Shown: piece by piece, positions 7,999 to 62,291 of the stretch
How positions within the stretch are numbered: position 1 is the stretch's first letter
Layout of the letters: each line of letters opens with the position of its first letter
Assembly: GCA_963717235.1 (NCBI GenBank)
Contig: CAVQVQ010000003.1
Location: 310,260 to 374,259, forward strand
Direction: 5' to 3'
Source of the DNA: an uncultured Solirubrobacterales bacterium
GTDB lineage: Bacteria; Actinomycetota; Thermoleophilia; Solirubrobacterales; 70-9
DNA: 64,000 nt
The notes under the pieces: generated by a model
What the model saw: only the letters and a program-made list of their open reading frames with translations
The model's database searches: none
Told to the model about the DNA's origin: nothing
Program-made: the position numbers and the translations under genes

Positions 7999-8058
7999 CC
8001 GAGGGGTGCCAGGAGCCAGGCTCGCGTGATGGTCGTCCCGGCTCGACCGAGGGGTGTC
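7981..8058 (+). repeat. Imperfect tandem duplication: 30-bp unit at 7981-8010 and 8029-8058, period 48 bp, 28/30 identical, spanning the lhr stop codon and the 5' end of the nei ORF
   Basis: Copy 1 is atggtcgtcccggctTgaccgaggggtgCc and copy 2 is atggtcgtcccggctCgaccgaggggtgTc. The lhr TGA (7996-7998) corresponds to CGA (8044-8046) in copy 2. Confidence 0.85.
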
Positions 8059-8061
8059 AGA

Positions 8062-8829
8062 TTGGCTGAGGGCGATTCGATCGTCAGGATGGCCAGGCTG
8101 ATCGAGTCGGCCTTCGACGGCCGCGAGGTCGAGCGGGCGCAGGCACCGAATCCTAGGAGCCCGCTGCGCTCGACCGCGGGCCGGCTGGTCGGCCACGGAC
8201 TGAGTGGCACGGAGACCCGCGGCAAACACCTGCTGCTCCACTTCGACTCCGACCTGACCCTCCACGCCCACATGGGCATGGTCGGCGGCTGGTACGCCTA
8301 CCGTCCGGGGCAGCGCTGGCGAAAGCCCCGCCGATCGGCCTGGCTGATCCTCGACCTCGGTGGGGTCGAGGTCGTCGAGTACGGAGGCCCGACCCTGCGG
8401 CTGGTCCGCCCGGCCGGGCTCAACCGGGACAGCCGGCTGGCGCTGCTCGGACCCGACATCCTCGGTGGTCCGGAAGCGGTCGCTGTGGCGGCGGCGAACG
8501 TGGCTGCAGCCGGCCCGGTCGAGCTCGGAGAGGCCCTGCTGAACCAGCGCCTGGTCTGCGGCATCGGCAACATCTTCAAGAGCGAAGCCTGCTTCGAGGC
8601 CGGTCTTGATCCGTGGCGGCCTGCGGAGAGCTTCGATCCGGCCGAGATCCGGTCGCTGATGGCGATCGCCTCGAAGCAGATGGAGCGCGGGGTGGAGACC
8701 GGCCGGCGACCGGGCCGGATCTACAGAAAGGCCGGCCGACCCTGCCCCGGCTGTCGCGGCCCGATCCGCTCCCGCGGCCAGGGGGATGACAACCGCACCA
8801 CCTACTGGTGTCCCACCTGCCAGACCTGA
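8062..8829 (+). CDS. nei: Fpg/Nei-family DNA glycosylase / endonuclease VIII-like (Nei2-like), non-canonical N-terminus
   Basis: TTG at 8062 is preceded by GAGGGG (8049-8054) and gives (M)AEGDSIVR, aligning with the MPEGD start of the Fpg/Nei family. RGKHLLLHF, the H2TH region NIFKSEACF and a C-terminal zinc finger CPGC..CPTC are present. The ORF track starts at 8026 (GTG) or 8029 (ATG), 11-12 codons upstream. Confidence 0.75.
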   Translation: MAEGDSIVRMARLIESAFDGREVERAQAPNPRSPLRSTAGRLVGHGLSGTETRGKHLLLHFDSDLTLHAHMGMVGGWYAYRPGQRWRKPRRSAWLILDLGGVEVVEYGGPTLRLVRPAGLNRDSRLALLGPDILGGPEAVAVAAANVAAAGPVELGEALLNQRLVCGIGNIFKSEACFEAGLDPWRPAESFDPAEIRSLMAIASKQMERGVETGRRPGRIYRKAGRPCPGCRGPIRSRGQGDDNRTTYWCPTCQT

Positions 8830-11124: not shown

Positions 11125-12771
<1,647 letters not shown>

Positions 12772-18988: not shown

Positions 18989-19270
18989 ATGGAACCTCCT
19001 TCTTCGTCATGCCTGCGGGGTTAGCTGACGGGCTCGCGCTGAAGAAGCTGCGCTACGGACCTGGGTCCGATTCGCCCCGGGAGGTCGGCCTCGGCCTCGC
19101 TCCAGTGGGTCCCCCGCCCCGGCTCACGGTGGAACCGGGTTAGGCGTATTCATCTGAACACCGCGGATGTTAGGGAAGTGTGAGCAGATTGACAAGCCCG
19201 CCGGCATCCGAAACTCTGACGCTTCCTTAGAGTTATGGAAGGTACGAGAACGGTGACCAGCGAAGGGGAC

Positions 19271-50944: not shown

Positions 50945-52798
50945 ATGGAAAGCAGCCCGCCCCAGGAGATCTCACTCTCGCCGGTGAAGGCGCTGCTCGA
51001 ACGCCTGCTCGAGGCCAACGCCGCCAATGATTCCGGAGAGGTCGCCTCCTACATCCCCGAACTCTCGACCGCCGACCCCGACCTGTTCGGGATCTGCCTG
51101 GTCACCGCGGGCGGCGCGGTCTACGAGGTCGGCGATACCCGTCAGGAGTTCACCATCCAGTCGATCTCGAAGCCGCTCACTTTCGCCCTGGCCCTGGAGG
51201 CCAACGGCGAGGAGGCGGTCCGCGAGCACGTCGACGTCGAGCCCAGCGGCGAGGCCTTCAACTCGATCACCCTGAAGCCCGGGTCGGGGATCCCGCTGAA
51301 CCCGATGGTCAACGCCGGGGCGATCGCGACCGCCTCGCTGATCAGGCCGATCGGCTTCGACCGTCCGATCGACCGCATCCTCAACGAGTACTCGGCCTTC
51401 GCCGGCCGGGACCTGGAGATCGACGAGGAGGTCTACCGCTCCGAGGACAAAAGCGGCCACCGCAACCGGGCGATCGCCTACCTGATGAAGAACTCCGGGG
51501 CGCTGGGCGATGAGTCCGAGGTGGAGGAAGTGGTCGAGACCTACTTCCGGCAGTGCTCGACCCTGGTCAACTGCCGCGACCTCGCGACCATGGCCGCGAC
51601 GCTCGCCTCGACCGGGGTCAACCCGGTGACCCGCGAGCGTGTGCTGCGCGAGGACACCGTGCGCAGCGTGCTCAGCGTGATGGCCAGCTGCGGAATGTAC
51701 GACGCGGCCGGCGACTGGCTCTACAACGTCGGGCTGCCGGCCAAGTCCGGGGTCGCCGGCGGGATCATCGCCGTGCTGCCCGGCCAGGTCGGCATCGCGG
51801 TCTACTCGCCGCCGCTCGATGCCCACGGAAACAGCGTGCGCGGGGTGGCGGTCTGCGAGCAGCTCTCGGCCGAACTGCGGCTGCATGTGATGAGCCCGAC
51901 CCGTCGGCCCCAGCCTCCGGTCAGGGCGCTCCACTCCTGTGCCGACAGCAGGTCGAGGAGGATGCGCCCGGCCGCCGAGCAACAGGTGCTCGAAGAGCAG
52001 GGCGGGCGGGTCCGTGTGGTCGAGCTCCAGGGTGAGATCTCCTTCGCCGCCGGAGAGCTGATCTCCAGCGTCGTCCTCGAAGCAGCCGATTCGATCGACT
52101 ACGTGGTCCTCGACTTCATGGCGGTCCGCGGGGTCGATTCGGTGGTCGTGCCGATCTTCAGTGATCTGGTCGAATCGCTGGAGCGTGCGGGAGGTCTGCT
52201 GCTCTTCTCCGACAGCGATCGCCAGCCCGACTTCGAGGAGGCCTTCAACCGGCTCCGGGAGAACCGCGGTCTGCCGAAGGTACGGGACTTCCCCGACCTC
52301 GACATGGCGATCGAATGGACCGAGGACCAGATCATCGAGCGCTACGGCGATCTGACCGAAACCGGTGAGATGCCGCTGGCCGAACACGGCGCCGCCCAGG
52401 GAATGGACCCGGAGCAGCTCGAGCGTCTCGCTGCCGTGCTCGAGCGGCGCGAGTACAGCGCCGGCGAGAGGATCTACGACGCCGAGGAGGAGGTCGTCGA
52501 GGTCCTGCTGATCACCCGTGGCGGGATCAACATCCTGGCCACCGACGGTGCCGGTGACGTTCGCCGGATGTCGACCCTCCCCGCCGGAATGGTGCTGGGC
52601 GACATCGCGATGCTCGGCGGCGGAACGCGCCTGGGCCACTCCGAGGCGGCGACCGATACGGTCGCCTACGCGCTCAGCTCGGCCGCCTACGACGAACTGA
52701 GGCGGAGCGACCCGGTCCTGCTCTCGATCTTCCTCGAGAACCTGATGAAGCTGATCGCCCTCAGGGTCGGCCACCTGCGCCGGCACATGGTCGGCTGA
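50945..52798 (+). CDS. glsA: Glutaminase A fused to a STAS domain and a cyclic-nucleotide-binding domain
   Basis: Glutaminase core (YIPEL..., QSISKP, NAGAI, GVAGGI) to about residue 310. STAS-like region RVVELQGEISFAAG...LDFMAVRGVDS. cNMP-binding region GERIYDAEEEV..LLITRGG..GDIAMLGG. Confidence 0.8.
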   Translation: MESSPPQEISLSPVKALLERLLEANAANDSGEVASYIPELSTADPDLFGICLVTAGGAVYEVGDTRQEFTIQSISKPLTFALALEANGEEAVREHVDVEPSGEAFNSITLKPGSGIPLNPMVNAGAIATASLIRPIGFDRPIDRILNEYSAFAGRDLEIDEEVYRSEDKSGHRNRAIAYLMKNSGALGDESEVEEVVETYFRQCSTLVNCRDLATMAATLASTGVNPVTRERVLREDTVRSVLSVMASCGMYDAAGDWLYNVGLPAKSGVAGGIIAVLPGQVGIAVYSPPLDAHGNSVRGVAVCEQLSAELRLHVMSPTRRPQPPVRALHSCADSRSRRMRPAAEQQVLEEQGGRVRVVELQGEISFAAGELISSVVLEAADSIDYVVLDFMAVRGVDSVVVPIFSDLVESLERAGGLLLFSDSDRQPDFEEAFNRLRENRGLPKVRDFPDLDMAIEWTEDQIIERYGDLTETGEMPLAEHGAAQGMDPEQLERLAAVLERREYSAGERIYDAEEEVVEVLLITRGGINILATDGAGDVRRMSTLPAGMVLGDIAMLGGGTRLGHSEAATDTVAYALSSAAYDELRRSDPVLLSIFLENLMKLIALRVGHLRRHMVG

Positions 52799-52871
52799 CG
52801 ACCCGACCCTTGCCTGGAACAGACTTTCGGATTTTCGCCCTGTTTGGTCTTCGCTCGGGCAATTGCTGCGT

Positions 52872-52900
52872 TTGTTGCACTCAAGTCACACAGTTATAGT
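52872..52900 (+). promoter_or_regulatory. Candidate promoter TTGTTG-N17-TATAGT of the vapBC operon
   Basis: The -10 ends 4-10 nt before the clustered ATGs at 52905, 52911 and 52917, so the leader is short or absent. Confidence 0.45.
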
Positions 52901-52904
52901 CAGA

Positions 52905-53192
52905 ATGGTCATGAAGATGGTCGGCGTAGCGGAACTGAAGGCAAAGCTCAGCGAGTACCTCGACTCGGTCAAGGCCGGTGAGGAAGTTGTGGTGACCGAA
53001 CGCGGCAAGCCTGTCGCCAGACTGAGTCGCCCGGATCCGGTCTCCGGGGAAGTCGAAGAGCTGGTCAAGTCGGGCGTGGCTCGCCCTCCTCGCAAAAAGC
53101 TGCCGACCGACTTCTTCACGAGCGTTCGTCCCGAAGATCCGGACGGCTCGATCCTCGAGTCGCTGATCGACGAGCGCCGCGAAGGTCGTTGA
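52905..53192 (+). CDS. vapB: Phd/YefM-type antitoxin (VapB)
   Basis: VGVAELKAKLSEYLDSVKAGEEVVVTERGKPVARL. Start is one of the ATGs at 52905, 52911 or 52917. The stop overlaps the vapC start. Confidence 0.8.
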   Translation: MVMKMVGVAELKAKLSEYLDSVKAGEEVVVTERGKPVARLSRPDPVSGEVEELVKSGVARPPRKKLPTDFFTSVRPEDPDGSILESLIDERREGR

Positions 53193-53629
53193 GCTTGAGG
53201 TTCTGGGACTCTTCGGCGATCGTTCCACTTCTCGTCTCGGAGGCTCGCAGCCGGATGGCGCTCGACCTGCTCGAAGCCGACCAGGGGATGGTCGTCTGGT
53301 GGGGAACCCCGCTCGAGTGCGCTTCGGCCGTTTTCAGGCGCGAACGGGCAGGTGGCCTCGGACCCGCCGAAAGCGACGCCGCGATTGCGAATCTGAAAGC
53401 CCTCGAAGACGCCTGGGTCGAGATCCAGCCCGGCGATGCCCTCAGGTCACGCGCGACCCGGGCGCTTGCGGTCCATGAACTGCGGGCCGCGGACTCACTT
53501 CAGCTGGCCGCCGCCCTTTCCTGGCGGCCCGAACCCCGGCAGGCCGACTTCGTCACCTTCGATAGCCGGCTAGGTTCCGCGGCGCGGCTCGAAGGATTCC
53601 ATCTGCTCGAGCTGCCGGGTCCGGGTTGA
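53189..53629 (+). CDS. vapC: PIN-domain toxin VapC
   Basis: FWDSSAIVPLL and AADSLQLAAAL carry the conserved acidic residues of PIN. TTGA overlap with vapB. Confidence 0.8.
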   Translation: MSLRFWDSSAIVPLLVSEARSRMALDLLEADQGMVVWWGTPLECASAVFRRERAGGLGPAESDAAIANLKALEDAWVEIQPGDALRSRATRALAVHELRAADSLQLAAALSWRPEPRQADFVTFDSRLGSAARLEGFHLLELPGPG

Positions 53630-53658
53630 GACGGCGACAGGGGCTAGGCTCGTCACAC

Positions 53659-54456
53659 ATGAGTAAGTCCGCCGCTTCCGGCTTCGCCGACCTCACGGGC
53701 AAGACCGCCCTGGTCACCGGCTGCGGCAGCGCCGAGGGCATCGGTTTCGCTATCGCCCGGGCGCTCGGCCGGCAGGGGGCCGGGGTGGCGATCTCCTCGA
53801 CCACCGAGCGCATCCACGACCGCGCCGCCGAGCTCCGGGGCCAGGGGATCGAGGTCAGCGCCCACGTCGCCGACCTGATCGACCCCTCCGAGGCGACCCG
53901 CCTGGTCGAAGAAGCCACCGCCTGGCACAGCAGCCTCAACGTGCTGGTCAACAACGCCGGCATGAGCCAGGTCGGGACCGAGGACCCTGGTCGTGAGTTC
54001 AAGGACATCAGCCACGCCGAGTGGCGGGCCGGCATCGACCAGAACCTCGATCTCGCTTTCAACGTGACCCGGGCCGCGCTGACCGCAATCACCGACTCGA
54101 AGGACGGCCGGATCATCTTCGTCGGCTCGGTCACCGGCCCGATGGTCAGCGCCCCCGGCAACCCGGCCTACAGCGCCGCCAAGGCCGGCATCGACGGCCT
54201 GATGCGCTCGCTGGCGATCGAGCTCGGGCCGACCGGCACCACGGTCAACTCGATCAACCCCGGCTGGATCGAAACCGCCAGCGCCCTGCCCGAGGAGGTC
54301 GTCGCCGGCGAACACACCCCGGTCGGCAGGCCCGGCACCCCGGACGAAGTCGCAGCCGCCGCCGTACTGCTCGCCGCCCCCGAGGCCTCCTACATAACCG
54401 GCCAGACCCTGGTCGTCGACGGCGGCAACATCATCCAGGAGATCAAGGGATCCTGA
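53659..54456 (+). CDS. SDR-family oxidoreductase (FabG-like)
   Basis: TALVTGCGSAEGIGFAIA, NNAG and YSAAKAG (YxxxK). Start taken at the ATG at 53659. Confidence 0.85.
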   Translation: MSKSAASGFADLTGKTALVTGCGSAEGIGFAIARALGRQGAGVAISSTTERIHDRAAELRGQGIEVSAHVADLIDPSEATRLVEEATAWHSSLNVLVNNAGMSQVGTEDPGREFKDISHAEWRAGIDQNLDLAFNVTRAALTAITDSKDGRIIFVGSVTGPMVSAPGNPAYSAAKAGIDGLMRSLAIELGPTGTTVNSINPGWIETASALPEEVVAGEHTPVGRPGTPDEVAAAAVLLAAPEASYITGQTLVVDGGNIIQEIKGS

Positions 54457-54475: not shown

Positions 54476-54517
54476 GCGAATTCGCAAGGGCCCCGGCCGA
54501 ATTCGCCTGAGTTCGAA
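54476..54517. promoter_or_regulatory. Cluster of AT-centred palindromes (GCGAATTCGC, CGAATTCG, TTCGAA) just upstream of the first island promoter motif
   Basis: Centres at about 54480.5, 54501.5 (21 bp apart) and 54514.5. Unusual in this GC-rich context. Candidate operator. Confidence 0.35.
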
Positions 54518-54523
54518 GTCGCC

Positions 54524-54550
54524 TGTCAGATCTTCCGTCCGCCCACCGAC
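54524..54550 (+). promoter_or_regulatory. Island motif copy e: TGTCAGA-N16-CGAC (ECF-like promoter candidate) upstream of the DUF6569-like operon
   Basis: TGTCAGAtcttccgtccgcccacCGAC. It lies 34 nt upstream of the SD-preceded ATG at 54585. Confidence 0.55.
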
Positions 54551-54615
54551 ACCTTCCGGGCAAGCGAAGAAGCGGAGGGGCGAGATGACGACCACACGAG
54601 AAGATGAAGTGACGA

Positions 54616-55599
54616 TTGAGGACTACCAGCGCGAGACCGCTGACGGTCGGCGAGCCGGATGTCTCGGGACCGATCGCGGTCTACCCGGTATTCGGGCCGG
54701 CGCCGGTCCAGCAGTACACCTCGATGAGCCGCGCCCAGGCGCTCGGCTTCAAGGTCAACGAGCAGCCCGGCGGTGGCTCGGTGCGCGACGTGGTCGTATC
54801 CAACCCGACCGGTTCCGCGGTTCTGATCTACGAAGGCGAAGAGGTGGTCGGTGGTCAGCAGAACCGCACCTTCGACAAGAGCCTGCTCGTGGCCCCGGGC
54901 GAAACCGTGATCGCGCCGGTCAGCTGTGTCGAGCAGGGCCGCTGGGACGGCTCCCGCAACGCCGAGGACTTCCTGCCTTCGATGCAGGCGGCCGACCCGG
55001 ACCTGCGCCGGCGCAAGGCCAGCTCCTCCCACCGGGCCCGGGTGTCCGGGATGGAAGAGCGCGCCGACCAGGGCGAGGTCTGGGCAGCCGTGTCCGACCG
55101 CTCGACCAGCCTCGGCGTGCATTCGCCGACCGGTGCCTCCAGCGATGCTTTCGAAAGCCACCGCGACCGTCTGCAGGCGAGTGCTTCGCAGATCAACCTG
55201 CACGAAGGGCAGGTCGGCATGGTCTTCCAGGTCGGAGGCAGGGTGCTCGCACTCGACCTGGTCAGCCGGCCGGAGGTCTTCGCCGATCTCCACGCGCCGC
55301 TGGTCCAGGGCTACTGCCTCGACGCGCTCGGTCGCAACACCCCGGCAAGGGTGAGGGGCACCAGGTATGCCGAGCGCTTCCTGCACAAGGTGGCCGGCAA
55401 CCGAGTCTTCGAAAACGACGGCATCGGCCTCGGCCGGGGCTTCCGTTTCGAGAACGATCGCGCGGTCGGCACCGGGCTGGTCTCGGGCGAGGAGCTGATC
55501 CAGCTCTCGGTCTTCACCAACCGACCCGAGCGCCCGGAAGCCACCGCGCGACCGACCCGCCGCACACGGATCAACCGTCCGTCGAGGCGTCACCCTTGA
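54616..55599 (+). CDS. DUF6569 / ARPP-1-like protein; start ambiguous (possible +1 frameshift from ATG at 54585)
   Basis: LTVGEPDVSGPIAVYPVF and VLIYEGEEVVGGQQNRTFDKSLLVAPGETVIAPVSCVEQGRW match my memory of that family. The first in-frame start is TTG at 54616 with no SD. A strong GGAGGGG-ATG at 54585 is in the other frame, and GC3 switches frame at about 54637-54640. Confidence 0.55.
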   Translation: MRTTSARPLTVGEPDVSGPIAVYPVFGPAPVQQYTSMSRAQALGFKVNEQPGGGSVRDVVVSNPTGSAVLIYEGEEVVGGQQNRTFDKSLLVAPGETVIAPVSCVEQGRWDGSRNAEDFLPSMQAADPDLRRRKASSSHRARVSGMEERADQGEVWAAVSDRSTSLGVHSPTGASSDAFESHRDRLQASASQINLHEGQVGMVFQVGGRVLALDLVSRPEVFADLHAPLVQGYCLDALGRNTPARVRGTRYAERFLHKVAGNRVFENDGIGLGRGFRFENDRAVGTGLVSGEELIQLSVFTNRPERPEATARPTRRTRINRPSRRHP

Positions 55600-55856
55600 G
55601 CCGCGGCAAGGAGGCCCGGCCCAGGACCCGGCCCGCGGACCCGTGCGCCTTCTGTGGCGTGCGGGTCCCGCGCCGCGGGTCCACCGACAAAGGCGAACCC
55701 AGGCTCTGCCACCCCTGCGACTCCGGAAGCAGCTACCAGTTCGCGGTGAAGCGGACTGTCCGTATGTTCACCCCGTTCGCCGAGAGCCGCTGGCGCCGCC
55801 CGGGCCTGGTCGACGCCGAAGCGACGCTCGGACTCAGGCCAAGGCCCAGAAGGTGA
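55596..55856 (+). CDS. 86-aa zinc-ribbon protein (CxxC...CxxC)
   Basis: TTG overlaps the upstream stop (TTGA). Product is SRGKEARPRTRPADPCAFCGVRVPRRGSTDKGEPRLCHPCDSGSSYQF... GC3 is very high. It is hidden inside shadow ORF 54021..55856. Confidence 0.55.
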   Translation: MSRGKEARPRTRPADPCAFCGVRVPRRGSTDKGEPRLCHPCDSGSSYQFAVKRTVRMFTPFAESRWRRPGLVDAEATLGLRPRPRR

Positions 55857-56305
55857 GACCGTGCGTGATCTGCGGCCGGTCGAAGCTCGACGGGTCGTGG
55901 CACGAAGACATCGCCGTCTGTCGTGAGTGCGAGCTCGCCCGCCGGCCGTCGGAATCGACTGAGGTCACACCCCGGCAGTTCGTCGCCGGCTCGGGCTGGC
56001 GCCTGGCGACCACCATGCTCGACCACCCGCACCAGTACACCGTTCGAGACCTGAGCAATCACGACGCCCGCAAGACCACCGCGCTCGGCCACGCCGAGTT
56101 CGAGAGCTTCGCGAGGCTCACCGCCGACCGCGGCCGCCCCGAAAGATGGGGCAGCGCCACCTACACCTACCTCGAGCTGGACGGCTGGCAGTACTGGACG
56201 ATGGGCAACCCGCCGGAGGCGACGACCATCATCAACCGGAGGCCGGTCAGCCCCGAAGCCCGGGCGGAGATCGACGAGCAGGTCCGCCGGTTCCGAGTCG
56301 CTTAG
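55853..56305 (+). CDS. 150-aa protein: N-terminal zinc ribbon plus uncharacterised C-terminal domain (PHQYTVR ... DGWQYWTMG ... IINRRP)
   Basis: GTG overlaps the upstream stop (GTGA). N-terminus is RPCVICGRSKLDGSWHEDIAVCRECE. It is the C-terminal part of ORF 55643..56305. Confidence 0.6.
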   Translation: MRPCVICGRSKLDGSWHEDIAVCRECELARRPSESTEVTPRQFVAGSGWRLATTMLDHPHQYTVRDLSNHDARKTTALGHAEFESFARLTADRGRPERWGSATYTYLELDGWQYWTMGNPPEATTIINRRPVSPEARAEIDEQVRRFRVA

Positions 56306-56326
56306 ACCCTGAAGGCTGTCGCGGCG

Positions 56327-57226
56327 CTACTCCTCCGGAACCAGGGAGAAGAGCGGCCGGCGGCATTCGGGGCAGAGCAGTTCGAGCTGACTCTCCCTGT
56401 CGACCGTCCGGCCATCGGTTGCATCGCCGGCCCAGCCGCACGAGCAGTCGATGCTTCCCATCTCACCGATGGCGGCCAGCAGATTGTTCCCGCCGCCGTT
56501 CGGGCTCCGGCGTGTCGCTTTCTTCACCTGGTGGTCGATGGCCCACCGCGGACCGAGCGGTTGGCGTTTCCCCCGGAGCTCCAGGTTGAGATTGGCGGCG
56601 AAGGTCCTGGCGGAGTAACCGGGGCCTCTGAGCTGCAGCTCTCCTTCGCGGGTCGGGTTCAGGGAAGCCAGCCTCGGGCCGTACTTCTCCCGGAGGATCC
56701 AGAGGACCTCCTCGAAGCGCGGCATCGCCTGCTTCATTCCGACCTCGCGCCAGATGACCCGGTCGCCGTGACTGAGCACGGTCCAGCCGTCCTCTTCGCC
56801 TTCGACCTCCTCGAAGTCCCAGGTGATCTCCAGGTCCTCCCCGGCCAGGTCCGGAAGCTGCGAGGCCGACTTCAGCTTGCTCTGCTCGAAGCGTTCGAAC
56901 CTCTTGTCCCACTCGGCCTGCAGGGCCCGGCTCCGGGCCATCTGCTCCTCCGTGAACCGCAGCTCGCAGCCCTCCGGTGACTTCGCGTTTTCGGGAGTCC
57001 AGGGGATGTGTGCGGCCTCGTCTACCAGGCCCATTCTCCGGTTGTACGCCCGGGCGCTGTCGTTCATGAGCTTGAAGCTCCCGTCCGGGTCGTTCACGGG
57101 GTCTTCCGGATACGCGTTCTCGCTCACCGGTCCCTCGAGCGGGTTCAGCAGTCGATCGATCCACCGCTCTTCTTCGCTGCGGTCGTCTTCGGCCACGGTC
57201 GGCTCCCCTCGTCGCTGTCCTTCCAA
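56327..57226 (-). CDS. Hypothetical acidic protein with C-terminal Cys cluster (CSCGW...CPEC)
   Basis: ORF 56327..57322. Start candidates are TTG at 57226 (7 nt after motif copy a, leaderless) or GTG at 57196 (after GGGGAG). The ORF-track start would overlap the upstream gene and the motif. Confidence 0.5.
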   Translation of the reverse strand: MEGQRRGEPTVAEDDRSEEERWIDRLLNPLEGPVSENAYPEDPVNDPDGSFKLMNDSARAYNRRMGLVDEAAHIPWTPENAKSPEGCELRFTEEQMARSRALQAEWDKRFERFEQSKLKSASQLPDLAGEDLEITWDFEEVEGEEDGWTVLSHGDRVIWREVGMKQAMPRFEEVLWILREKYGPRLASLNPTREGELQLRGPGYSARTFAANLNLELRGKRQPLGPRWAIDHQVKKATRRSPNGGGNNLLAAIGEMGSIDCSCGWAGDATDGRTVDRESQLELLCPECRRPLFSLVPEE

Positions 57227-57233
57227 CAGTTGA

Positions 57234-57260
57234 GTCGGCTCAGGGAGCCGAAATCTGACA
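57234..57260 (-). promoter_or_regulatory. Island motif copy a: TGTCAGA-N16-CGAC
   Basis: Minus strand reads TGTCAGAtttcggctccctgagcCGAC, in the gap between the stop at 57285 and the next gene. Confidence 0.55.
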
Positions 57261-57284
57261 ACGGGGGCGCCGTGAGCCTTCCGG

Positions 57285-58346
57285 CTACCCGAAGACCAGG
57301 CCGAAAAGGCCAGAGACGACAATCCAGATCACGACGAGGACCAGGCCGACCACGGGCAGCCACAGGGCGATGATGGTTGCCCACATGAGCAGGCCGATGA
57401 CCGCCATGACCAGAAAGTAGGCGAAGCTCAGTACCGCGTTGACCACCGTCGCCGAAGCCCTGAGGATCGAGCCGAGGGCCGCCGAGGCAGGCTGCAGGCG
57501 GGAGGGAGCTCGTGACACCGGAACCAGGTCAGGCAGCCGGTTCCATTCCGGCCCGGTCTGCTCGAGGTCGTCTCCGCTCACGAGTCGGCCTACGGTCGCC
57601 GGGGTGATCTGGCTGCGTCTGGTGGCGAACCTCCGGACCCGCTGTTCGCTCGTCTGGCGCAGCGTCGGCACCCGGTAGCGCCGGGCGAGCGCGGCGAAGG
57701 CTTCCTGCTCCTCTTCGTCAACCGGCTCTTGCGGAAGCACGATCGCGATCGGACGGGCCTTCTCAGCGCGGAACCCGTCCTCATGAAGCTCGATCCGGCC
57801 CCAGGCCTGAATCACTCCGGTCACCCGGAACTCGCCAGACTCGCGGAACGGGCCGCGCTTGCGGTGGGTTCTGTCCGGCTGGCAGGACCACGGATGGAAG
57901 GCGTAGAGGCCGCAGCTGCAGTCGGGACCGGGCGGGGACAGGCAGTGCCTCGGCAGCCGCCTTTCGCCACCCGGACCACACTCCGCGACAGTGGCCCGAC
58001 CGCCCTGTCGCCATTCGAAACCGCCGTAGCCGCGCAGCCGGCAGCCTTCGCCGTCGGCAAGGTCCAGGTCCCAGGCTCTCACGCCGATCATCAGCCCCGC
58101 GATCAACGGCGGCTCCGGGACTTCGGCAGTGCGCTCGAGCAGGGAAGCCTGCCCTGTCAAGCCGGCACCTCGTCCGGGTCTCGAGCCGGCTCCGGTCGGC
58201 GCTCGGGCGCAGGCGATGGACCGGGCTCCTGGCGATCCGGCTCCCGACGTCCCGGCCCGGCCGGAGGAGCCGGCGCCTTCTCGGGCGCCTCGAGCGGCTC
58301 CACCGTGATCGTCCTCGAAGGTCCGGGAAGGCTCATGGCCGCTCAC
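57285..58346 (-). CDS. Hypothetical protein with a conserved Cys motif (RAW...A.C...H...PDCSCGLYAF ... GFRAEKARP) and two or three C-terminal TM helices
   Basis: GTG overlaps the vWA stop (GTGA). The first about 62 codons are G/A/R/S low-complexity. An alternative reading is a 59-aa P/E-rich ORF (58157..58336) followed by a TTG start at 58160 (TTGA overlap). Confidence 0.55.
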   Translation of the reverse strand: MSGHEPSRTFEDDHGGAARGAREGAGSSGRAGTSGAGSPGARSIACARAPTGAGSRPGRGAGLTGQASLLERTAEVPEPPLIAGLMIGVRAWDLDLADGEGCRLRGYGGFEWRQGGRATVAECGPGGERRLPRHCLSPPGPDCSCGLYAFHPWSCQPDRTHRKRGPFRESGEFRVTGVIQAWGRIELHEDGFRAEKARPIAIVLPQEPVDEEEQEAFAALARRYRVPTLRQTSEQRVRRFATRRSQITPATVGRLVSGDDLEQTGPEWNRLPDLVPVSRAPSRLQPASAALGSILRASATVVNAVLSFAYFLVMAVIGLLMWATIIALWLPVVGLVLVVIWIVVSGLFGLVFG

Positions 58347-59614
58347 TCCTCGCCGCGCGGCTTGCGACCCCGGCGACGGCCCTTCTGGTGGTAGTCGGCC
58401 ATCATGCGCTTGCGGGCCGCGGCCTCGTCGACTTCCATTTCAGTGATGTTCTGGGCCATCCAGCGGTCCTCGGCTTCCCACTCGGCGATGTCAGCCTGGG
58501 GCATGTTCGAGCGATCCTTCGACCGCAGCCGATGCTTCGAACTCCTCATCCTTCTGAGGGCCTGCCGCTTGCGGCCCATCTTCAGATCCTCCGCCGCCAG
58601 TCGCTTGTCGCGCTGGGACTGCTGGAAGGTCAGCTCGGTATCGACCTGCTCGTCCTTGACCCGGCCGGCTGCCTGGTCGCCCGGGACCACGTTCACGTTG
58701 ACCGGGATCTTGGCCAGCTTGCTCTCCATGGTCTCGGTATCGACCCAGCGCAGTTCGATCTCGCAGACCTGCGCCGGCCCGAGCACGGCGATGTCGGGCA
58801 CGTCGATCTCGAAGAGCAGCTTGCGGTTCTCGTCGGCGACCAGCTCACCGAGTTCGACCATGAAGCCGCTCTCGATCTGCGACACGGAGAGGTCGTTGAA
58901 CAGCCTGATTTCGCTGACCGAGTCGCTCGGCTTCACGGTCAGGCTGACCGCCTGCGCGACCTGCTCGAGCAGACCCTCGACCTCGGAGGCCAGCTTGGCA
59001 CCGGCTTCGTCCGCGTCCTCGGCGAAGTGGGAGTTTCCGGACCCGCCGCGACTGATCGCCTCGAGCAGGTCTTCGTCGTAGCCGCGGCCGATACCGATGG
59101 TGGAGATAGTGATGCCTTCCCTGGAACCACCGCCGGCGAAGCTCTCGAGCTCCCGGTGGTCGGTGACTCCCCGATTGGCGTGCCCGTCGGAGAGCAGCAC
59201 CAGGGTCGTCGAAGCGCCGTCGGAGGTGCGCCCGCATTCCTGGACGCCGCGCAGCAGGCCGCCGCCGAGGTTGGTCATCCCGCCGGTTCCGATCTGGTGG
59301 AGCACCTGTCGGATGGCGGTGCCGTCGCCGACCGGAGCGGAAGGAACCGCCACCTGGATCTCGTCGTCGAATACGACCAGACCGAAGACGTCATCGGCGT
59401 GGAGCCGGCCGATCAGGCTGTCGATCGCCTGGAGTGCGGTGACCAGCTGTCCGCCGGCCATCGAGCCGCTGCGGTCCAGCACCACCTGCAGTCGGGCCGG
59501 GTCACGGCGCCTGTCTCCCTTCAGCCCCGGTGCCGCTATCTCCAGCAGCAGATTGACCGTCTCACCCTGATCGACGGCGATTACATTGAAGTCCAGCTTT
59601 GCGTTTAGGTCCAT
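58343..59614 (-). CDS. von Willebrand factor type A (vWA) domain protein with basic C-terminal tail
   Basis: ATG at 59614 (MDLNAKLDFNV...). MIDAS residues are DRSGSM, GGMTNL and LLSDGHAN. C-terminus is K/R-rich. Confidence 0.8.
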   Translation of the reverse strand: MDLNAKLDFNVIAVDQGETVNLLLEIAAPGLKGDRRRDPARLQVVLDRSGSMAGGQLVTALQAIDSLIGRLHADDVFGLVVFDDEIQVAVPSAPVGDGTAIRQVLHQIGTGGMTNLGGGLLRGVQECGRTSDGASTTLVLLSDGHANRGVTDHRELESFAGGGSREGITISTIGIGRGYDEDLLEAISRGGSGNSHFAEDADEAGAKLASEVEGLLEQVAQAVSLTVKPSDSVSEIRLFNDLSVSQIESGFMVELGELVADENRKLLFEIDVPDIAVLGPAQVCEIELRWVDTETMESKLAKIPVNVNVVPGDQAAGRVKDEQVDTELTFQQSQRDKRLAAEDLKMGRKRQALRRMRSSKHRLRSKDRSNMPQADIAEWEAEDRWMAQNITEMEVDEAAARKRMMADYHQKGRRRGRKPRGEE

Positions 59615-59623
59615 CCCCGGAGA

Positions 59624-59650
59624 GTCGGCCGACGGCTCCGATTTCTGACA
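59624..59650 (-). promoter_or_regulatory. Island motif copy b: TGTCAGA-N16-CGAC, 9 nt upstream of the vWA ATG (leaderless transcript predicted)
   Basis: Minus strand reads TGTCAGAaatcggagccgtcggcCGACtctccggggATG. Confidence 0.55.
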
Positions 59651-59676
59651 GCGGCCCAGCCTCCCCGCTTCCACGG

Positions 59677-59976
59677 CTACTCGGGCGAGAAGAAGATGGC
59701 GTAGACGAATGCGGCCGCCCAGCCGAACATGAACAGTGCCACCAGACCTCCGACGGCCCAGGGAATCACCGCCCAGACCGCCCTGTCGATCCAGTCGGCC
59801 ACGGTCGGCGGCTCACCGTCCTTCTGCCGACTGTCCCGTCGCATGCAATAGGACTCGTGGAGGTCGTAGATCAAGGCGCCCACCACGTACAGCGGGATCA
59901 GCATGATGTAGAGGATCCAGTTGCCGATCAGGTATTCGATGCCGGCGATGGAGGTCATCGGCGGTCCGGCCCGCAT
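59677..59976 (-). CDS. Small membrane protein (99 aa, two or three TM helices)
   Basis: IGNWILYIMLIPLYVVGALIY and AVIPWAVGGLVALFMFGWAAAFVYAIFF. Confidence 0.6.
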   Translation of the reverse strand: MRAGPPMTSIAGIEYLIGNWILYIMLIPLYVVGALIYDLHESYCMRRDSRQKDGEPPTVADWIDRAVWAVIPWAVGGLVALFMFGWAAAFVYAIFFSPE

Positions 59977-60007
59977 GTCGGCGTCGAGCAGTTCATCTGA
60001 GACAGGC

Positions 60008-60034
60008 GTCGCCCGCGCGCCGGCCGATCTGACA
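60008..60034 (-). promoter_or_regulatory. Island motif copy c: TGTCAGA-N16-CGAC
   Basis: Minus strand reads TGTCAGAtcggccggcgcgcgggCGAC, between the stop at 60063 and the membrane-protein gene. Confidence 0.5.
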
Positions 60035-60062
60035 ACCCGCCGGGGTCAGGCGCGCACGGCGC

Positions 60063-60452
60063 TCACCAGCCGTCCCACTCGAGCACGGTGTGGGGCGGGG
60101 GCGGCACGCCCGCGTCTCGAGCCCGGCGCACCAGCTCGACCCGCCGATCGGACTCTTCGATCGTCAGCGGCTCCCCGTTCTTCGGCGTCGTGCAGTCGAT
60201 GACCGGCAACTTCTCGTATCTCGCACGGACCTCTTCGTAGGAGAGCTCGCCGATGGGGACGAAGAGGTTGCATGCGTGGATGAAAGACCTCGCAGAGAAG
60301 TTCCTCGCCTGCCACGCCGTCTGATCTCCCGAGGCGATCGCCCCGGGACACCGCTCCAGTTGCTCCCGCCAGAAATCCTCGTCGGTCTCCGGACAGTCGC
60401 TCATCGTCTTCCGTCTGAGGAGTTTCAGCCGGCGCCGGGCGAGGGTCTCCAC
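60063..60452 (-). CDS. Hypothetical protein (ends ...HTVLEWDGW); 5' end ambiguous
   Basis: GTG at 60452 or ATG at 60404 (MSDCPETDEDFW). An ATG at 60544 overlaps the upstream stop and opens MGDKGKACVRAWQNYAGA in another frame. This suggests a frameshift in the ggggcccggg run (about 60484-60493) or a separate 39-aa ORF. Confidence 0.45.
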   Translation of the reverse strand: METLARRRLKLLRRKTMSDCPETDEDFWREQLERCPGAIASGDQTAWQARNFSARSFIHACNLFVPIGELSYEEVRARYEKLPVIDCTTPKNGEPLTIEESDRRVELVRRARDAGVPPPPHTVLEWDGW

Positions 60453-60536
60453 CTCGTCGAACTCCTCCCGGGGCTTCGGCCTCTCGCCCGGGCCCCGGCG
60501 TAGTTCTGCCAGGCCCGGACGCAGGCCTTGCCCTTG

Positions 60537-60824
60537 TCACCCATGTCCCGAGTCCGGCGGGTCGTAGTAGACGATCGGCTCGCGCTTCTCCATGAGGCGT
60601 ATGTCGCGCACGGCCCTTCGCGCCGCCCATCTCGCTCCGCGTTCGGTCAGGGCGGTGCCGCTCTTTCCGGGCAGCCACGGAGCGCGGTTCCACTTGCTCG
60701 GGCGGACGTTCCGCACCTCGACCCGCCAGCTCCACCACCCCGGCAGCGCCGGCTTGAGCTCGATCTTCAGGGGTACGCCCGCGCCCTCGTCGGTGCTGCT
60801 GCGCCGTCGGTCGTCTTCGCTCAC
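60537..60824 (-). CDS. Hypothetical 95-aa protein
   Basis: GTG at 60824 overlaps the stop of the REC-like gene (GTGA). Product is SEDDRRRSSTDEGAGVPLKIELKPALPGWWSWRVEVRNVRPSKWNRAPWLPGKSGTALTERGARWAARRAV... Confidence 0.5.
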   Translation of the reverse strand: MSEDDRRRSSTDEGAGVPLKIELKPALPGWWSWRVEVRNVRPSKWNRAPWLPGKSGTALTERGARWAARRAVRDIRLMEKREPIVYYDPPDSGHG

Positions 60825-61276
60825 GACCCGGCCCCCGCTGCTGCGCGAACGATGTACTTCGGCTGGCTGCCGGTCGAGACGTCCTCGACCGCGACCGGGA
60901 GACGGCCCGGCAGAGTCTCTATCGCCCGCTTCATCCGGTCGCGACCCTCGGGGTTGGCCGTGTGGAGGGTGATCCCGTCGCGCGGCCACATCGGCCGGTC
61001 CTCGGCGCCGTGGAGCTCCTCGAGGAAGTCGATCACCTGGTAGCCCTGGCCGCAGGCGACGTCTCCGTCCAGGTCGTTGTCGAGGGAGAGCTCGACCACA
61101 CGCTCCTGGAGGATCAGCATGCAGACCTCCCGGACCGTGCGCAGGTGGACCCAGCCTTCGGGGGCCAGGCGGAACTCGTTGTCGTCGTCGAGGAAGACGC
61201 GGATCTCGCCCTCACGGGGGAAAGGCCGTCCTTCGGCGTCCCTGAATGCGGTTCTGTAGTTGTGGATCTCAGTCAT
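60821..61276 (-). CDS. Receiver-like domain protein resembling the cyclic-phosphate-processing REC (cPPR) family seen in phage/RNA-repair contexts
   Basis: IRVFLDDDNEF..APEGWVHLRTVREV..VVELSLDNDL...GQGYQVIDFLEE...ITLHTANPEGRDRMKRAI. Assignment is from memory of that family's layout. Confidence 0.5.
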   Translation of the reverse strand: MTEIHNYRTAFRDAEGRPFPREGEIRVFLDDDNEFRLAPEGWVHLRTVREVCMLILQERVVELSLDNDLDGDVACGQGYQVIDFLEELHGAEDRPMWPRDGITLHTANPEGRDRMKRAIETLPGRLPVAVEDVSTGSQPKYIVRAAAGAGS

Positions 61277-61431
61277 CGCTCGCCTTTCCTCTCCCGCTGC
61301 TCCCGCAGGGCACGAGCCCAGCCGGCGGTCACCGGCTGCACTTCGGTTCTCGTACTTCCGCCGACCTTCTTCCAGCCCCGGCGGCCGACGGGCACCCAGC
61401 CCTCGCGTTTCTCATCACTCCTGTCCGACAT
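61273..61431 (-). CDS. Small basic hypothetical protein (52 aa)
   Basis: GGAGGTG-N6-ATG at 61431 gives MSDRSDEKREGWVPVGRRGWKKVGG... The stop overlaps the next start (ATGA). Confidence 0.4.
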   Translation of the reverse strand: MSDRSDEKREGWVPVGRRGWKKVGGSTRTEVQPVTAGWARALREQRERKGER

Positions 61432-61539
61432 GAACGTCACCTCCATCGAATCGGGCTTTCGCACCGTGTCCCTGTGGGATCGGTTGCGGCGGCGTCATCG
61501 GGCCCGGACCCTCGACCGCTCTGAATGGACGGTGCGTAT

Positions 61540-61586
61540 GTCGCACCTGATGGAGAGAGTCTGACAGCGGCACCGCTTTCTGACAA
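61540..61586 (-). promoter_or_regulatory. Island motif copies d2 (61540-61566, perfect TGTCAGA-N16-CGAC) and d1 (61559-61585, TGTCAGA-N16-AGAC), overlapping in tandem
   Basis: Minus strand reads TTGTCAGAaagcggtgccgcTGTCAGActctctccatcaggtgCGACa. It lies at the head of the minus-strand gene string. Confidence 0.55.
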
Positions 61587-61706: not shown

Positions 61707-62291
61707 TTGGCTGATGACAGAACGCTGGGCGAGAGGTTCGACCTCGCCCTCGAAATGGCCCACCGCTACCACGGTGACCAGAAGAGGAAAGGCGCCGAGA
61801 CCCCGTACTTCGGCCACATACTCGGGGTCGCGTCGCTGGTCATCGACGAAGGCGGAGACGAAGACGAAGCGATCGCCGCCCTGCTCCACGACGCCCCCGA
61901 GGACCAGGGAGGGGAAGAGACCCTGAAGGAGATCCACGACAAGTTCGGGGGTCGGGTGGCGCGAATCGTCTTCGGACTGAGCGACACCTTCGACGACCCG
62001 AAGCCGCCCTGGAAGAAGCGCAAGGAGGACTATCTGGCCCACCTTCGCGAGGAGACCGACCGCTCGGTCCTGCTGGTCTCGATCGCCGACAAGCTCCACA
62101 ACGCCCGCTCGATCGTGCTCGACCAGGCCGACTGCGGCGAAGCGGTCTGGGAGCGGTTCAAGGGAGGCAGGGAAGGCAGCCTCTGGTACTACGGCGAGCT
62201 GGTCAAGATCTTCGACGAGCGCTTCCCCGGCGCCCTGGCCGACGAGTTCAGGCGCACGGTCGAGCGCATCGGAGGCGGAGAGGCAGGATGA
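61707..62291 (+). CDS. HD-domain protein, RelA/SpoT-type (p)ppGpp-hydrolase-like (small alarmone hydrolase-like)
   Basis: HRYHGDQKRKGAETPYFGHILGVA and AALLHDAPED. TTG start after GAAGGAG. Confidence 0.6.
   Translation: MADDRTLGERFDLALEMAHRYHGDQKRKGAETPYFGHILGVASLVIDEGGDEDEAIAALLHDAPEDQGGEETLKEIHDKFGGRVARIVFGLSDTFDDPKPPWKKRKEDYLAHLREETDRSVLLVSIADKLHNARSIVLDQADCGEAVWERFKGGREGSLWYYGELVKIFDERFPGALADEFRRTVERIGGGEAG

Follow-up and report, generated by a model that had tools for sequence, protein, structure and literature searches.

An island of small, mostly uncharacterised genes at positions 54,476 to 61,586 of a 64-kb stretch of DNA from an uncultured Solirubrobacterales bacterium (the whole stretch is referred to here as the window) carries an S-adenosylmethionine (SAM) riboswitch of the SAM-I class, and its transcription units share one promoter-like motif. 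Here we establish these two features together with the gene models of the island, its mosaic content in relatives and the links of its products to known protein families. Tentatively, and with a little less than even confidence, we take the locus to be a co-regulated but modular set of genes – at least three separable modules – that occupies a hypervariable hotspot and may serve in a conflict or damage response. Comparisons are to loci and contigs from other genomes and metagenomes, designated L001 to L058.

As the original prediction for this DNA stated, the island is made of two convergent gene strings between an SDR gene (53626–54456) and an HD/EreA gene pair. Every candidate gene has the composition of coding DNA (in frame, GC-content higher at the first than at the second codon position and high at the third) in a genome of 65–71% GC. 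The genes first described exist, but their number is not about 12: there are 13 genes and one gene remnant, and five gene starts in the earlier annotation needed correcting. The island resolves into three modules that recur elsewhere, with no fewer than five transcription units. Module A comprises the gene for ARPP-1 (g1), those for the Zn-ribbon proteins g2 and g3, and g4, plus the flanking HD_4 gene; module B comprises g7, the gene for the vWA-domain protein (g6), g5s and the gene for the membrane-anchored g5; module C comprises the SAM-I riboswitch, g11, the gene for cREC (g10), g9 (or p160) and probably g8.

The genes are tightly packed. Each of the five 4-nt start/stop overlaps reported earlier (TTGA 55596, GTGA 55853, ATGA 61273–61276, GTGA 60821–60824 and GTGA 58343–58346) was found in the sequence; the last, however, is not a gene junction, since g5s (58336 to 58157) comes after vWA. 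The further claim that such overlaps are typical of phage-derived or immunity operons carries little weight: Phd/PIN, PIN/SDR and HD/EreA are joined by identical 4-nt overlaps, and because flanking genes carry them too, the overlaps are a habit of this genome and not a mark of the island. Other elements of the first description hold. A toxin–antitoxin (TA) module, a Phd/PIN pair, lies upstream at 52863–53629; the GC-content of the island is that of its flanks; and Pfam scans detected no integrase domain among island products. A tRNA scan of the island found none.

The riboswitch, which was missed in the original prediction, lies between the promoter-like motif of g11 and g11 itself. The aptamer occupies 61440–61531 on the minus strand (running from 61531 to 61440) and matches RF00162 across the full model (positions 1–108) with 59 bits against a gathering threshold of 44.4 (E = 5.6e-12); orthologous copies score 52–66 bits. 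The 3′ strand of the P1 helix (GAUGGAGG) holds the GGAGG ribosome-binding site, with the AUG of g11 8 nt further on, and in the minimum-energy fold an extended P1 pairs the Shine–Dalgarno sequence and the AUG region as well. Scans for sigma-70 promoters and intrinsic terminators found neither. With the ribosome-binding site in P1, the AUG region paired and no terminator, the riboswitch is most likely a translational off-switch, as judged from sequence and predicted fold.

Conservation of the riboswitch extends well beyond the window. Compensatory changes on both sides preserve pairing at five of the 22 predicted pairs across seven copies, and the promoter–hairpin–aptamer cassette hardly varies among eight copies taken from seven genomes. 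The riboswitch is present in every related genomic locus (L008–L013) and in metagenome loci. Among more distant metagenome loci, ten of the 19 with at least 750 nt of upstream sequence have a SAM riboswitch upstream of cREC, in some cases a cREC only 47–57% identical. SAM riboswitches normally govern metabolic (methionine) genes. Classical S-box regulons have the same aptamer class (RF00162) and, like the predicted switch of the island, are turned off by hiding the ribosome-binding site; the genes downstream of the island riboswitch, in contrast, encode small uncharacterised proteins and cREC rather than the biosynthesis, transport or salvage functions of the S-box. Our literature searches turned up no case of cREC or defence genes downstream of a SAM riboswitch. 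Locus L008 has two promoter-plus-SAM-riboswitch cassettes (11489–11581 and 12252–12344), one before g11 and the other before a cREC-like paralogue without the acidic catalytic motifs. A riboswitch of another class, for c-di-AMP (RF00379; 76 bits against a cut-off of 38), is located in the window at 18994–19156 on the minus strand, far upstream of the island.

The promoter-like motif said to be common to all units is real. TGTCAGA-N15-CCGACTC has five matches in the window, all within the island, compared to 0.53 expected from shuffled sequence; no shuffle reached five. On the plus strand it precedes ARPP at 54524–54556 (as TGTCAGA-N15-CCGACAC), a position kept in L008–L013. The remaining matches are on the minus strand: before g4 (57228–57260; also before g4 in L016 and L017 and before the g4 fragment in L010), before vWA (59618–59650), before g7 (60002–60034; conserved in L012 and L010) and before the riboswitch and g11 (61553–61585; L021, L023 and L030, three distant loci, also have it ahead of the riboswitch). 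The motif before vWA ends 7 nt from the vWA ATG, a distance that L010 and L012 share with the window although the letters in the gap differ. A −10 element before a leaderless mRNA would be expected to look so, and it is from such an mRNA that vWA is probably translated. A similar motif lies 5′ of ARPP in the distant locus L001, and the motif also occurs in loci where cREC is ~50% identical; in L021 it is found before two further genes, one for an AAA ATPase and one for a membrane protein. Its form (TGTCAG, 15–16 nt, CGAC) resembles the consensus of extracytoplasmic function (ECF) sigma factor promoters, making it a candidate ECF-type alternative promoter. The only other TGTCAGA heptamers in the window, at 8055 (plus strand) and 28472 (minus strand), are without the CGAC second half.

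Relatives of ARPP, with 74–91% identity, occur in six Solirubrobacterales metagenome-assembled genomes, and the loci around them share their flanks. On the left, the SDR gene is followed by ARPP; the glutaminase gene and sometimes a TA pair are found further upstream where the locus reaches. On the right, the riboswitch cassette is followed by HD, and by EreA where the locus reaches (L011 stops just past the riboswitch). The glutaminase (50945–52798 in the window), part of a left flank conserved in the related genomes, has C-terminal STAS and cyclic-nucleotide-binding domains, an unusual fusion.

Between these flanks each locus has its own content. L008 contains ARPP, g2, g11, a second riboswitch copy with the cREC-like paralogue, and a PIN toxin–antitoxin pair; L009 contains ARPP, g2, a PIN gene, g7, g8, p160, cREC and g11; L012 contains ARPP, g2, a DUF1254/DUF1214 gene, vWA, g7, g8, p160, cREC, g11 and two TA modules; and L013 contains ARPP, g8, p160 and g11, without cREC or vWA. 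L010 is rearranged, with a g4 fragment, a 61-aa (amino acid) membrane protein, vWA, a TA pair, g7, ARPP, g9, cREC and a cREC paralogue. The metagenome contigs L015–L017 have the riboswitch, g11, cREC, in part p160, and g4, convergent with g2 and ARPP; an HNH nuclease gene is present in L017. None of the six related genomes has g3, g5s or g5. L058 does have the full arrangement, but at 98–100% identity it represents the same species and is not independent; we used it solely for its independent gene calls.

The island is thus not the single, tightly coupled and conserved block first proposed: its content differs in the six related genomes and in several metagenome contigs, and what recurs is the three modules, not the full 12-gene set. 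Members of the island also differ in divergence. Identities of 47–59% for cREC and 48–65% for g7 (L009, L010) compare to 76–92% for SDR, ARPP, vWA and EreA in the same genome pairs. Fixed flanks, mosaic content and diverged cREC and g7 together make this a hotspot at which cassettes are gained, lost and replaced and in which some members evolve fast. Such a site is like the defence islands and core defence hotspots of other genomes, which share with it fixed flanks, mosaic content, interspersed TA and HNH genes and replaced cassettes.

Module C begins with the riboswitch and continues on the minus strand. The first gene, g11 (61273–61431; start corrected to ATG 61431), encodes a 52-aa basic protein and shares an ATGA overlap with the start of cREC. 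The cREC protein, g10 (60821–61276, minus strand), is a divergent receiver domain and predicted cyclic-phosphate phosphoesterase (Pfam PF20274, E = 2.1e-18) whose acidic motifs – the invariant LDD, SLDNDL and HT – are intact. It matches phrog_1479 and has homologues in large phages; viral contigs gave just two distant matches. Next, g9 (60537–60824, minus strand) encodes a 95-aa basic protein that stands in the place of p160 and has a homologue after cREC in L010. Between g9 and g8 there is a remnant of the C-terminus of a p160-family gene (60405–60540, minus strand), evidently displaced, which resembles the p160 tail in L013; a tblastn search with p160 matches the equivalent spot in L058. An intact p160 fills this slot in L009, L012, L013, L014, L016 and L017, and the remnant indicates that g9 replaced most of p160 in the lineage of the window. 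The last gene of the string, g8 (60063–60404, minus strand; start corrected to ATG 60404), encodes a 113-aa acidic protein with four Cys (MSDCPETDE...); it is found in L009, L012 and L013, and had no family match and no match among PDB sequences. In distant loci, the interval between the riboswitch and cREC contains one or two small genes that are related to p160 and have the motif DPxDYPxFP. In L020, L021, L027 and L038 a tRNA gene is located ~400–900 nt 3′ of cREC on the opposite strand.

Module A opens the plus-strand string. The ARPP-1 protein, g1 (54585–55599, plus strand; Pfam PF20208, E = 1.6e-75), has a conserved Cys/Gln motif, SCVEQGRW, and its native start is ATG 54585, with a GGAGGGG ribosome-binding site in front. 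Compared to the same-species contig L058, and to L009 and L008, the window has an extra A at 54636 that breaks the ARPP frame after codon 17; the intact open reading frame in the assembly extends only from TTG 54616 (327 aa, compared to 337 aa for the L058 orthologue). The insertion may be a sequencing or assembly error, or a real inactivating mutation. No ARPP relative was found in viral contigs. The next gene, g2 (55596–55856, plus strand; TTGA overlap with the ARPP stop), encodes an 86-aa basic Zn-ribbon protein (CxxC...CxxC) with no family match in Pfam, permissive scan included, and follows ARPP in L008, L009, L012, L015 and L017. The third, g3 (55853–56305, plus strand; 150 aa), combines an N-terminal Zn-ribbon with a C-terminal "PHQY" domain, and has a weak Prok-RING_2 match (Pfam PF14445, E = 3.6e-4) that falls under the curated cut-off. 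Its C-terminal domain (g3C) is homologous to a 147-aa gene beside ARPP in L001 (pairwise E = 1e-7), while among distinct genomes examined g3 is restricted to the window (L058 being the same species).

Facing this string is g4 (56327–57196, minus strand; start corrected to GTG 57196), which encodes a 289-aa acidic protein with an alpha/beta core and a C-terminal Zn-ribbon. Its family, of 403 representative clusters, is uncharacterised; most members are ~200 aa and consist of a Zn-ribbon and an alpha/beta core. No stretch of the family is conserved enough for a genome search, and ARPP was used as query instead. Several observations link g4 to its gene neighbours. In L015 and L017 g4 is convergent with ARPP–g2. 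Family members are fused to HD_4 in P0169 and P0298 (fusions to Sel1/TPR also occur), and family genes directly adjoin HD genes in L052–L054 (GC 0.47) and lie one gene apart from them in L055–L057 (GC 0.57), these being two unrelated lineages. The HD_4 phosphohydrolase gene of the window (61707–62291, plus strand; Pfam HD_4, E = 3.1e-23; ATGA overlap with EreA) is divergent from the riboswitch operon and stands beside the riboswitch cassette in all relatives; its product is 41% identical to the HD_4 part of the fusion P0169 (E = 8e-30). Given the fusions, the adjacency and this identity, the flanking HD_4 protein is probably the partner of g4, and the system would extend past the right boundary drawn for the island, which was set too tight. 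In L001, where ARPP is ~45% identical, one string contains a g4-like gene, the g3 C-terminal homologue, a Zn-ribbon–ARPP fusion, an EEP-family enzyme and a NERD-helicase pair. A reading of g4 as an RNase-H-like nuclease was set aside as a weak lead only: on a structural model with a predicted local distance difference test score (pLDDT) of 76 the RNase-H-like fold matches were non-significant (all E ≥ 0.09), and the g4 proteins of Solirubrobacterales are without the conserved Asp of the family "GD" motif. In L013 (13026–16460) the HD–EreA pair is apparently part-duplicated in tandem with a frameshifted second copy; these features may be long-read assembly errors.

Module B lies between the two, on the minus strand. 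Its first gene, g7 (59677–59976), is found in L009, L010 and L012 at 48–91% identity. The g7 product is a small membrane protein of 99 aa (93 aa if counted from the second Met), in which two segments are hydrophobic. The vWA-domain protein, g6 (58343–59614; 423 aa; Pfam VWA, E = 5.4e-16), starts at ATG 59614 and not at 59674, as its N-terminus, MDLNAKLDF, is common to L010 and L012; its nearest solved relatives are ITIH-type vWA domains. Six bases past the vWA stop begins a newly found gene, g5s (58157–58336), which encodes a 59-aa Pro-rich protein ("MSLPGPSRTITVEPLE..."), is conserved 5′ of g5 homologues in L003 and L001, and was also called in L058, with an agreeing g5 start. The g5s stop overlaps (TTGA) the start of g5 (57285–58160; start TTG 58160), a 291-aa protein with a Cys/His domain and a C-terminal hydrophobic anchor (residues 235–291). 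The invariant positions of the domain are R, W, C, CxC, H and GFRAE, in a family of more than 1,000 proteins. The g5s–g5 pair stands directly after SDR, without ARPP or g4, in L003; in L001 a fusion of the g5 domain to HIRAN lies beside the pair, and in the literature ARPP is paired with HIRAN (PMC9503650).

The g5 domain also occurs in Streptomyces phages (E = 2.4e-6 for BRock), and the g5 model (pLDDT 75.6), while without a fold match in PDB, matches uncharacterised phage proteins in BFVD (E = 2.4e-9, TM 0.59). An ADP-ribosyltransferase identity, raised by the R...CxCG...RAE pattern and a top PDB match to tRNA 2′-phosphotransferase, was rejected: the match is not significant (E = 0.66, TM 0.2), and the long beta-hairpins of the model are at odds with that fold. 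Most family members are ~222 aa long and come from Thermoleophilia. A paralogue of this length, with a membrane anchor, is found at 8001–8680 in each of L004, L006 and L007, in stable synteny with acyltransferase, Dak1/Dak2, glycerol facilitator and glycerol kinase genes, which suggests a core cellular role for this branch of the family. A module conserved near g5 homologues in L001 (5400–8700) and L002 (1000–3200) was considered as a source of the cognate sigma factor of the motif. It encodes a sigma-70 region-2 protein and an M78 (ImmA/IrrE-like) peptidase, together with a 226-aa protein and a small one; neither the window nor the related loci have a counterpart.

The original prediction had recognised no housekeeping assignment for any product, and most are indeed unassigned: apart from g1, g3, g6 and g10, no product matched Pfam, NCBIfam, PHROGs, PADLOC or PDB sequences, and permissive Pfam scans of the small island proteins added nothing. 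ARPP-1, cREC and vWA are exceptions, their families having been placed by earlier comparative genomics. In NCBIfam, PHROGs and PADLOC the only matches were that of cREC to phrog_1479 and generic ones of vWA, and PDB sequence searches with g3, g8 and cREC returned nothing. The island has no AAA, Pkinase or PP2C match in Pfam, and is thus not a vWA–MoxR or TerY-P system.

Published predictions place ARPP-1, cREC, vWA and HD phosphatases in conflict systems that act on NAD+/ADP-ribose and RNA ends (PMC9503650 section 3.8; PMC7824862). ARPP is predicted to react with ribose or other sugar moieties through its conserved Cys (PMC9503650), and the predicted reaction of cREC is the opening of a cyclic phosphate, either at an RNA end or in a derivative of ADP-ribose (PMC7824862, PMC9503650). 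The closest described relatives of the island are the predicted ARG-centred anti-ADP-ribosylation systems (Iyer, Burroughs, Anantharaman and Aravind 2022, PMC9503650 section 3.8). Three components are common to both. HD_4 corresponds to the coupled phosphatase of those systems, which can be a rhodanese-phosphatase, a calcineurin-like enzyme, an HD enzyme (of the alarmone-hydrolase type) or a HAD enzyme; ARPP-1 corresponds to their accessory ARPP, and vWA to their peptide-binding "chaperone", a vWA, SseB or TY-Chap protein. Both also have variable modules around a core, with actinobacteria among the hosts. Where ARG-centred systems have Macro or NADAR as a further predicted ADP-ribose-processing domain, the island has cREC. 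Unlike them, it is without ARG (the defining enzyme) and a rhodanese-phosphatase. Nor does it have a transcription factor of the Nudix or WYL kind; of the published systems, about 42% include a repressor in which Nudix or WYL is joined to an HTH (Iyer et al. 2022, PMC9503650). The control elements of the island are instead a SAM riboswitch and an alternative promoter motif, and it includes families not described there (g3C, g4, g5 and g5s). Since ARG and Nudix/WYL are absent, we do not file the island as a member of this class. Compared to the phage neighbourhoods in which cREC is associated with NAD+ and RNA repair (PMC7824862; PMC9503650 section 3.4.5), the island cREC belongs to the same family, PF20274, and keeps the acidic catalytic motifs; it is, however, without an RNA ligase, KptA, sirtuin, Nudix or 2H partner, and is chromosomal and placed behind a SAM riboswitch.

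From these features a working model may be put together, in which the biochemistry and the response to phages or toxins are what we infer. All units would be fired from one type of alternative promoter, TGTCAGA-N15-CCGACTC. At high SAM, P1 would sequester the g11 ribosome-binding site and keep the translationally coupled g11–cREC–g9 string silent; as SAM falls, the string would be made. The predicted cyclic-phosphate esterase (cREC), the phosphohydrolase (HD_4) and the predicted sugar-reactive Cys enzyme (ARPP) would process ribose-phosphate products, with vWA and its membrane partners as a possible protein-binding or target-sensing component. The conflict-like look of the locus comes from its mosaic content, the TA and HNH genes interspersed in relatives, the phage-linked families and the faster divergence of cREC and g7. 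To this extent the earlier suggestion of a conflict or signalling candidate finds support; the notion of one system does not.

That notion – all 12 or 13 products acting jointly in a single defence or signalling system – we consider quite improbable. The promoter motif common to all units, the tight packing with several start/stop overlaps and the same full arrangement in L058 would fit it, but L058 is the same species and no independent evidence, each distinct relative has its own subset (L008 only ARPP, g2, g11 and a cREC-like gene; L013 neither cREC nor vWA), g3, g5s and g5 are missing from all six related genomes, and the modules are found separately elsewhere. An improbable origin, if slightly less so, is a decayed prophage or integrated element whose leftover accessory genes have no joint function. 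The match of cREC to a PHROG family and to genes of large phages, the g5 domain in Streptomyces phages, and the many small uncharacterised genes with a gene remnant and a frameshift could be accounted for in this way. On the other side, we detected no integrase, tRNA, structural gene or compositional shift, nor any ARPP relative in viral contigs; moreover, the promoter and riboswitch cassette is almost invariant across relatives and the motif positions are kept, indicating selection for expression. Least probable in our view is salvage of SAM by-products (methylthioadenosine or 5′-deoxyadenosine sugars), with cREC, HD_4 and ARPP acting on ribose phosphates. A SAM riboswitch that is off at high SAM is a feature of methionine-salvage genes in Firmicutes, and a predicted action of ARPP on sugar moieties (PMC9503650) would suit such a pathway; against this, the kinases, isomerases, aldolases and nucleosidases of the known routes were all missing from Pfam and NCBIfam searches, and a metabolic pathway is a poor fit to content that is mosaic and includes vWA, membrane proteins and small basic proteins.

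The main rival to the conflict interpretation is a housekeeping regulon for starvation or stress, in which an alternative sigma factor and the SAM riboswitch turn on RNA or nucleotide clean-up and membrane proteins as methionine or SAM runs short, phages and toxins being irrelevant. We regard this as rather unlikely, yet as far more serious than the other alternatives. SAM riboswitches usually stand on metabolic genes, and the riboswitch is as indicative of metabolism as of conflict. The site on the chromosome is fixed, with host-like GC-content and no mobility genes; the motif drives unrelated genes in L021 (AAA ATPase, membrane protein); in distant relatives the riboswitch–cREC unit stands alone among ordinary genes, and the three modules need not cooperate; and the g5-domain paralogue in stable glycerol-gene synteny means that this family is not limited to variable islands. 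What such a regulon does not explain is that close relatives differ in content far beyond housekeeping expectation, that TA and HNH genes are interspersed, that cREC and the g5 domain are phage-associated, and that none of the loci contains or adjoins a gene of the methionine or SAM pathways.

Several further points weigh against a role in conflict, alongside those just shared with its rival. As noted originally, no known nuclease, NTPase or protease effector is recognised among the island products, and a search of PADLOC-DB 2.0 with the 13 island proteins, HD, EreA and Phd/PIN matched no known or candidate defence model, in which respect the island differs from defence hotspots. Pfam scans gave no ARG enzyme among island and flanking products and no Nudix, WYL or HTH regulator among island products, and a search of the window for a sigma factor or regulator that might act on the motif was likewise negative. 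In addition, several of the related genomes are long-read metagenome bins, and some of their frameshifts may be sequencing errors.

If the conflict interpretation is true, the predicted anti-ADP-ribosylation systems would gain, in this locus, a relative that lacks ARG and is gated by a riboswitch. Phages are known to use SAM-degrading enzymes (SAM lyases) to escape restriction and BREX. It is conceivable, although a long shot, that the SAM riboswitch is an infection sensor: phage SAM lyases would lower SAM, g11 and cREC would be translated, and variable, sigma-controlled nucleotide/ADP-ribose immunity modules would be armed. Were this so, a metabolite riboswitch would guard a defence hotspot. 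Whatever the role of the island, a SAM riboswitch before the cREC operon ties a well-understood metabolite sensor to a family of only predicted function, and relatives with a cREC of only about 47–57% identity have the link too. It offers an experimental handle, as lower SAM should turn on cREC and its small partner proteins. The modules also define testable partnerships: ARPP-1 with the Zn-ribbon proteins, g3C and g4; the g4 family with HD_4; and g5s with the g5 Cys–His domain and HIRAN. Finally, in Thermoleophilia, soil bacteria for which experimental genetics hardly exists, the locus delineates a candidate regulon and defines a promoter motif for its regulator.

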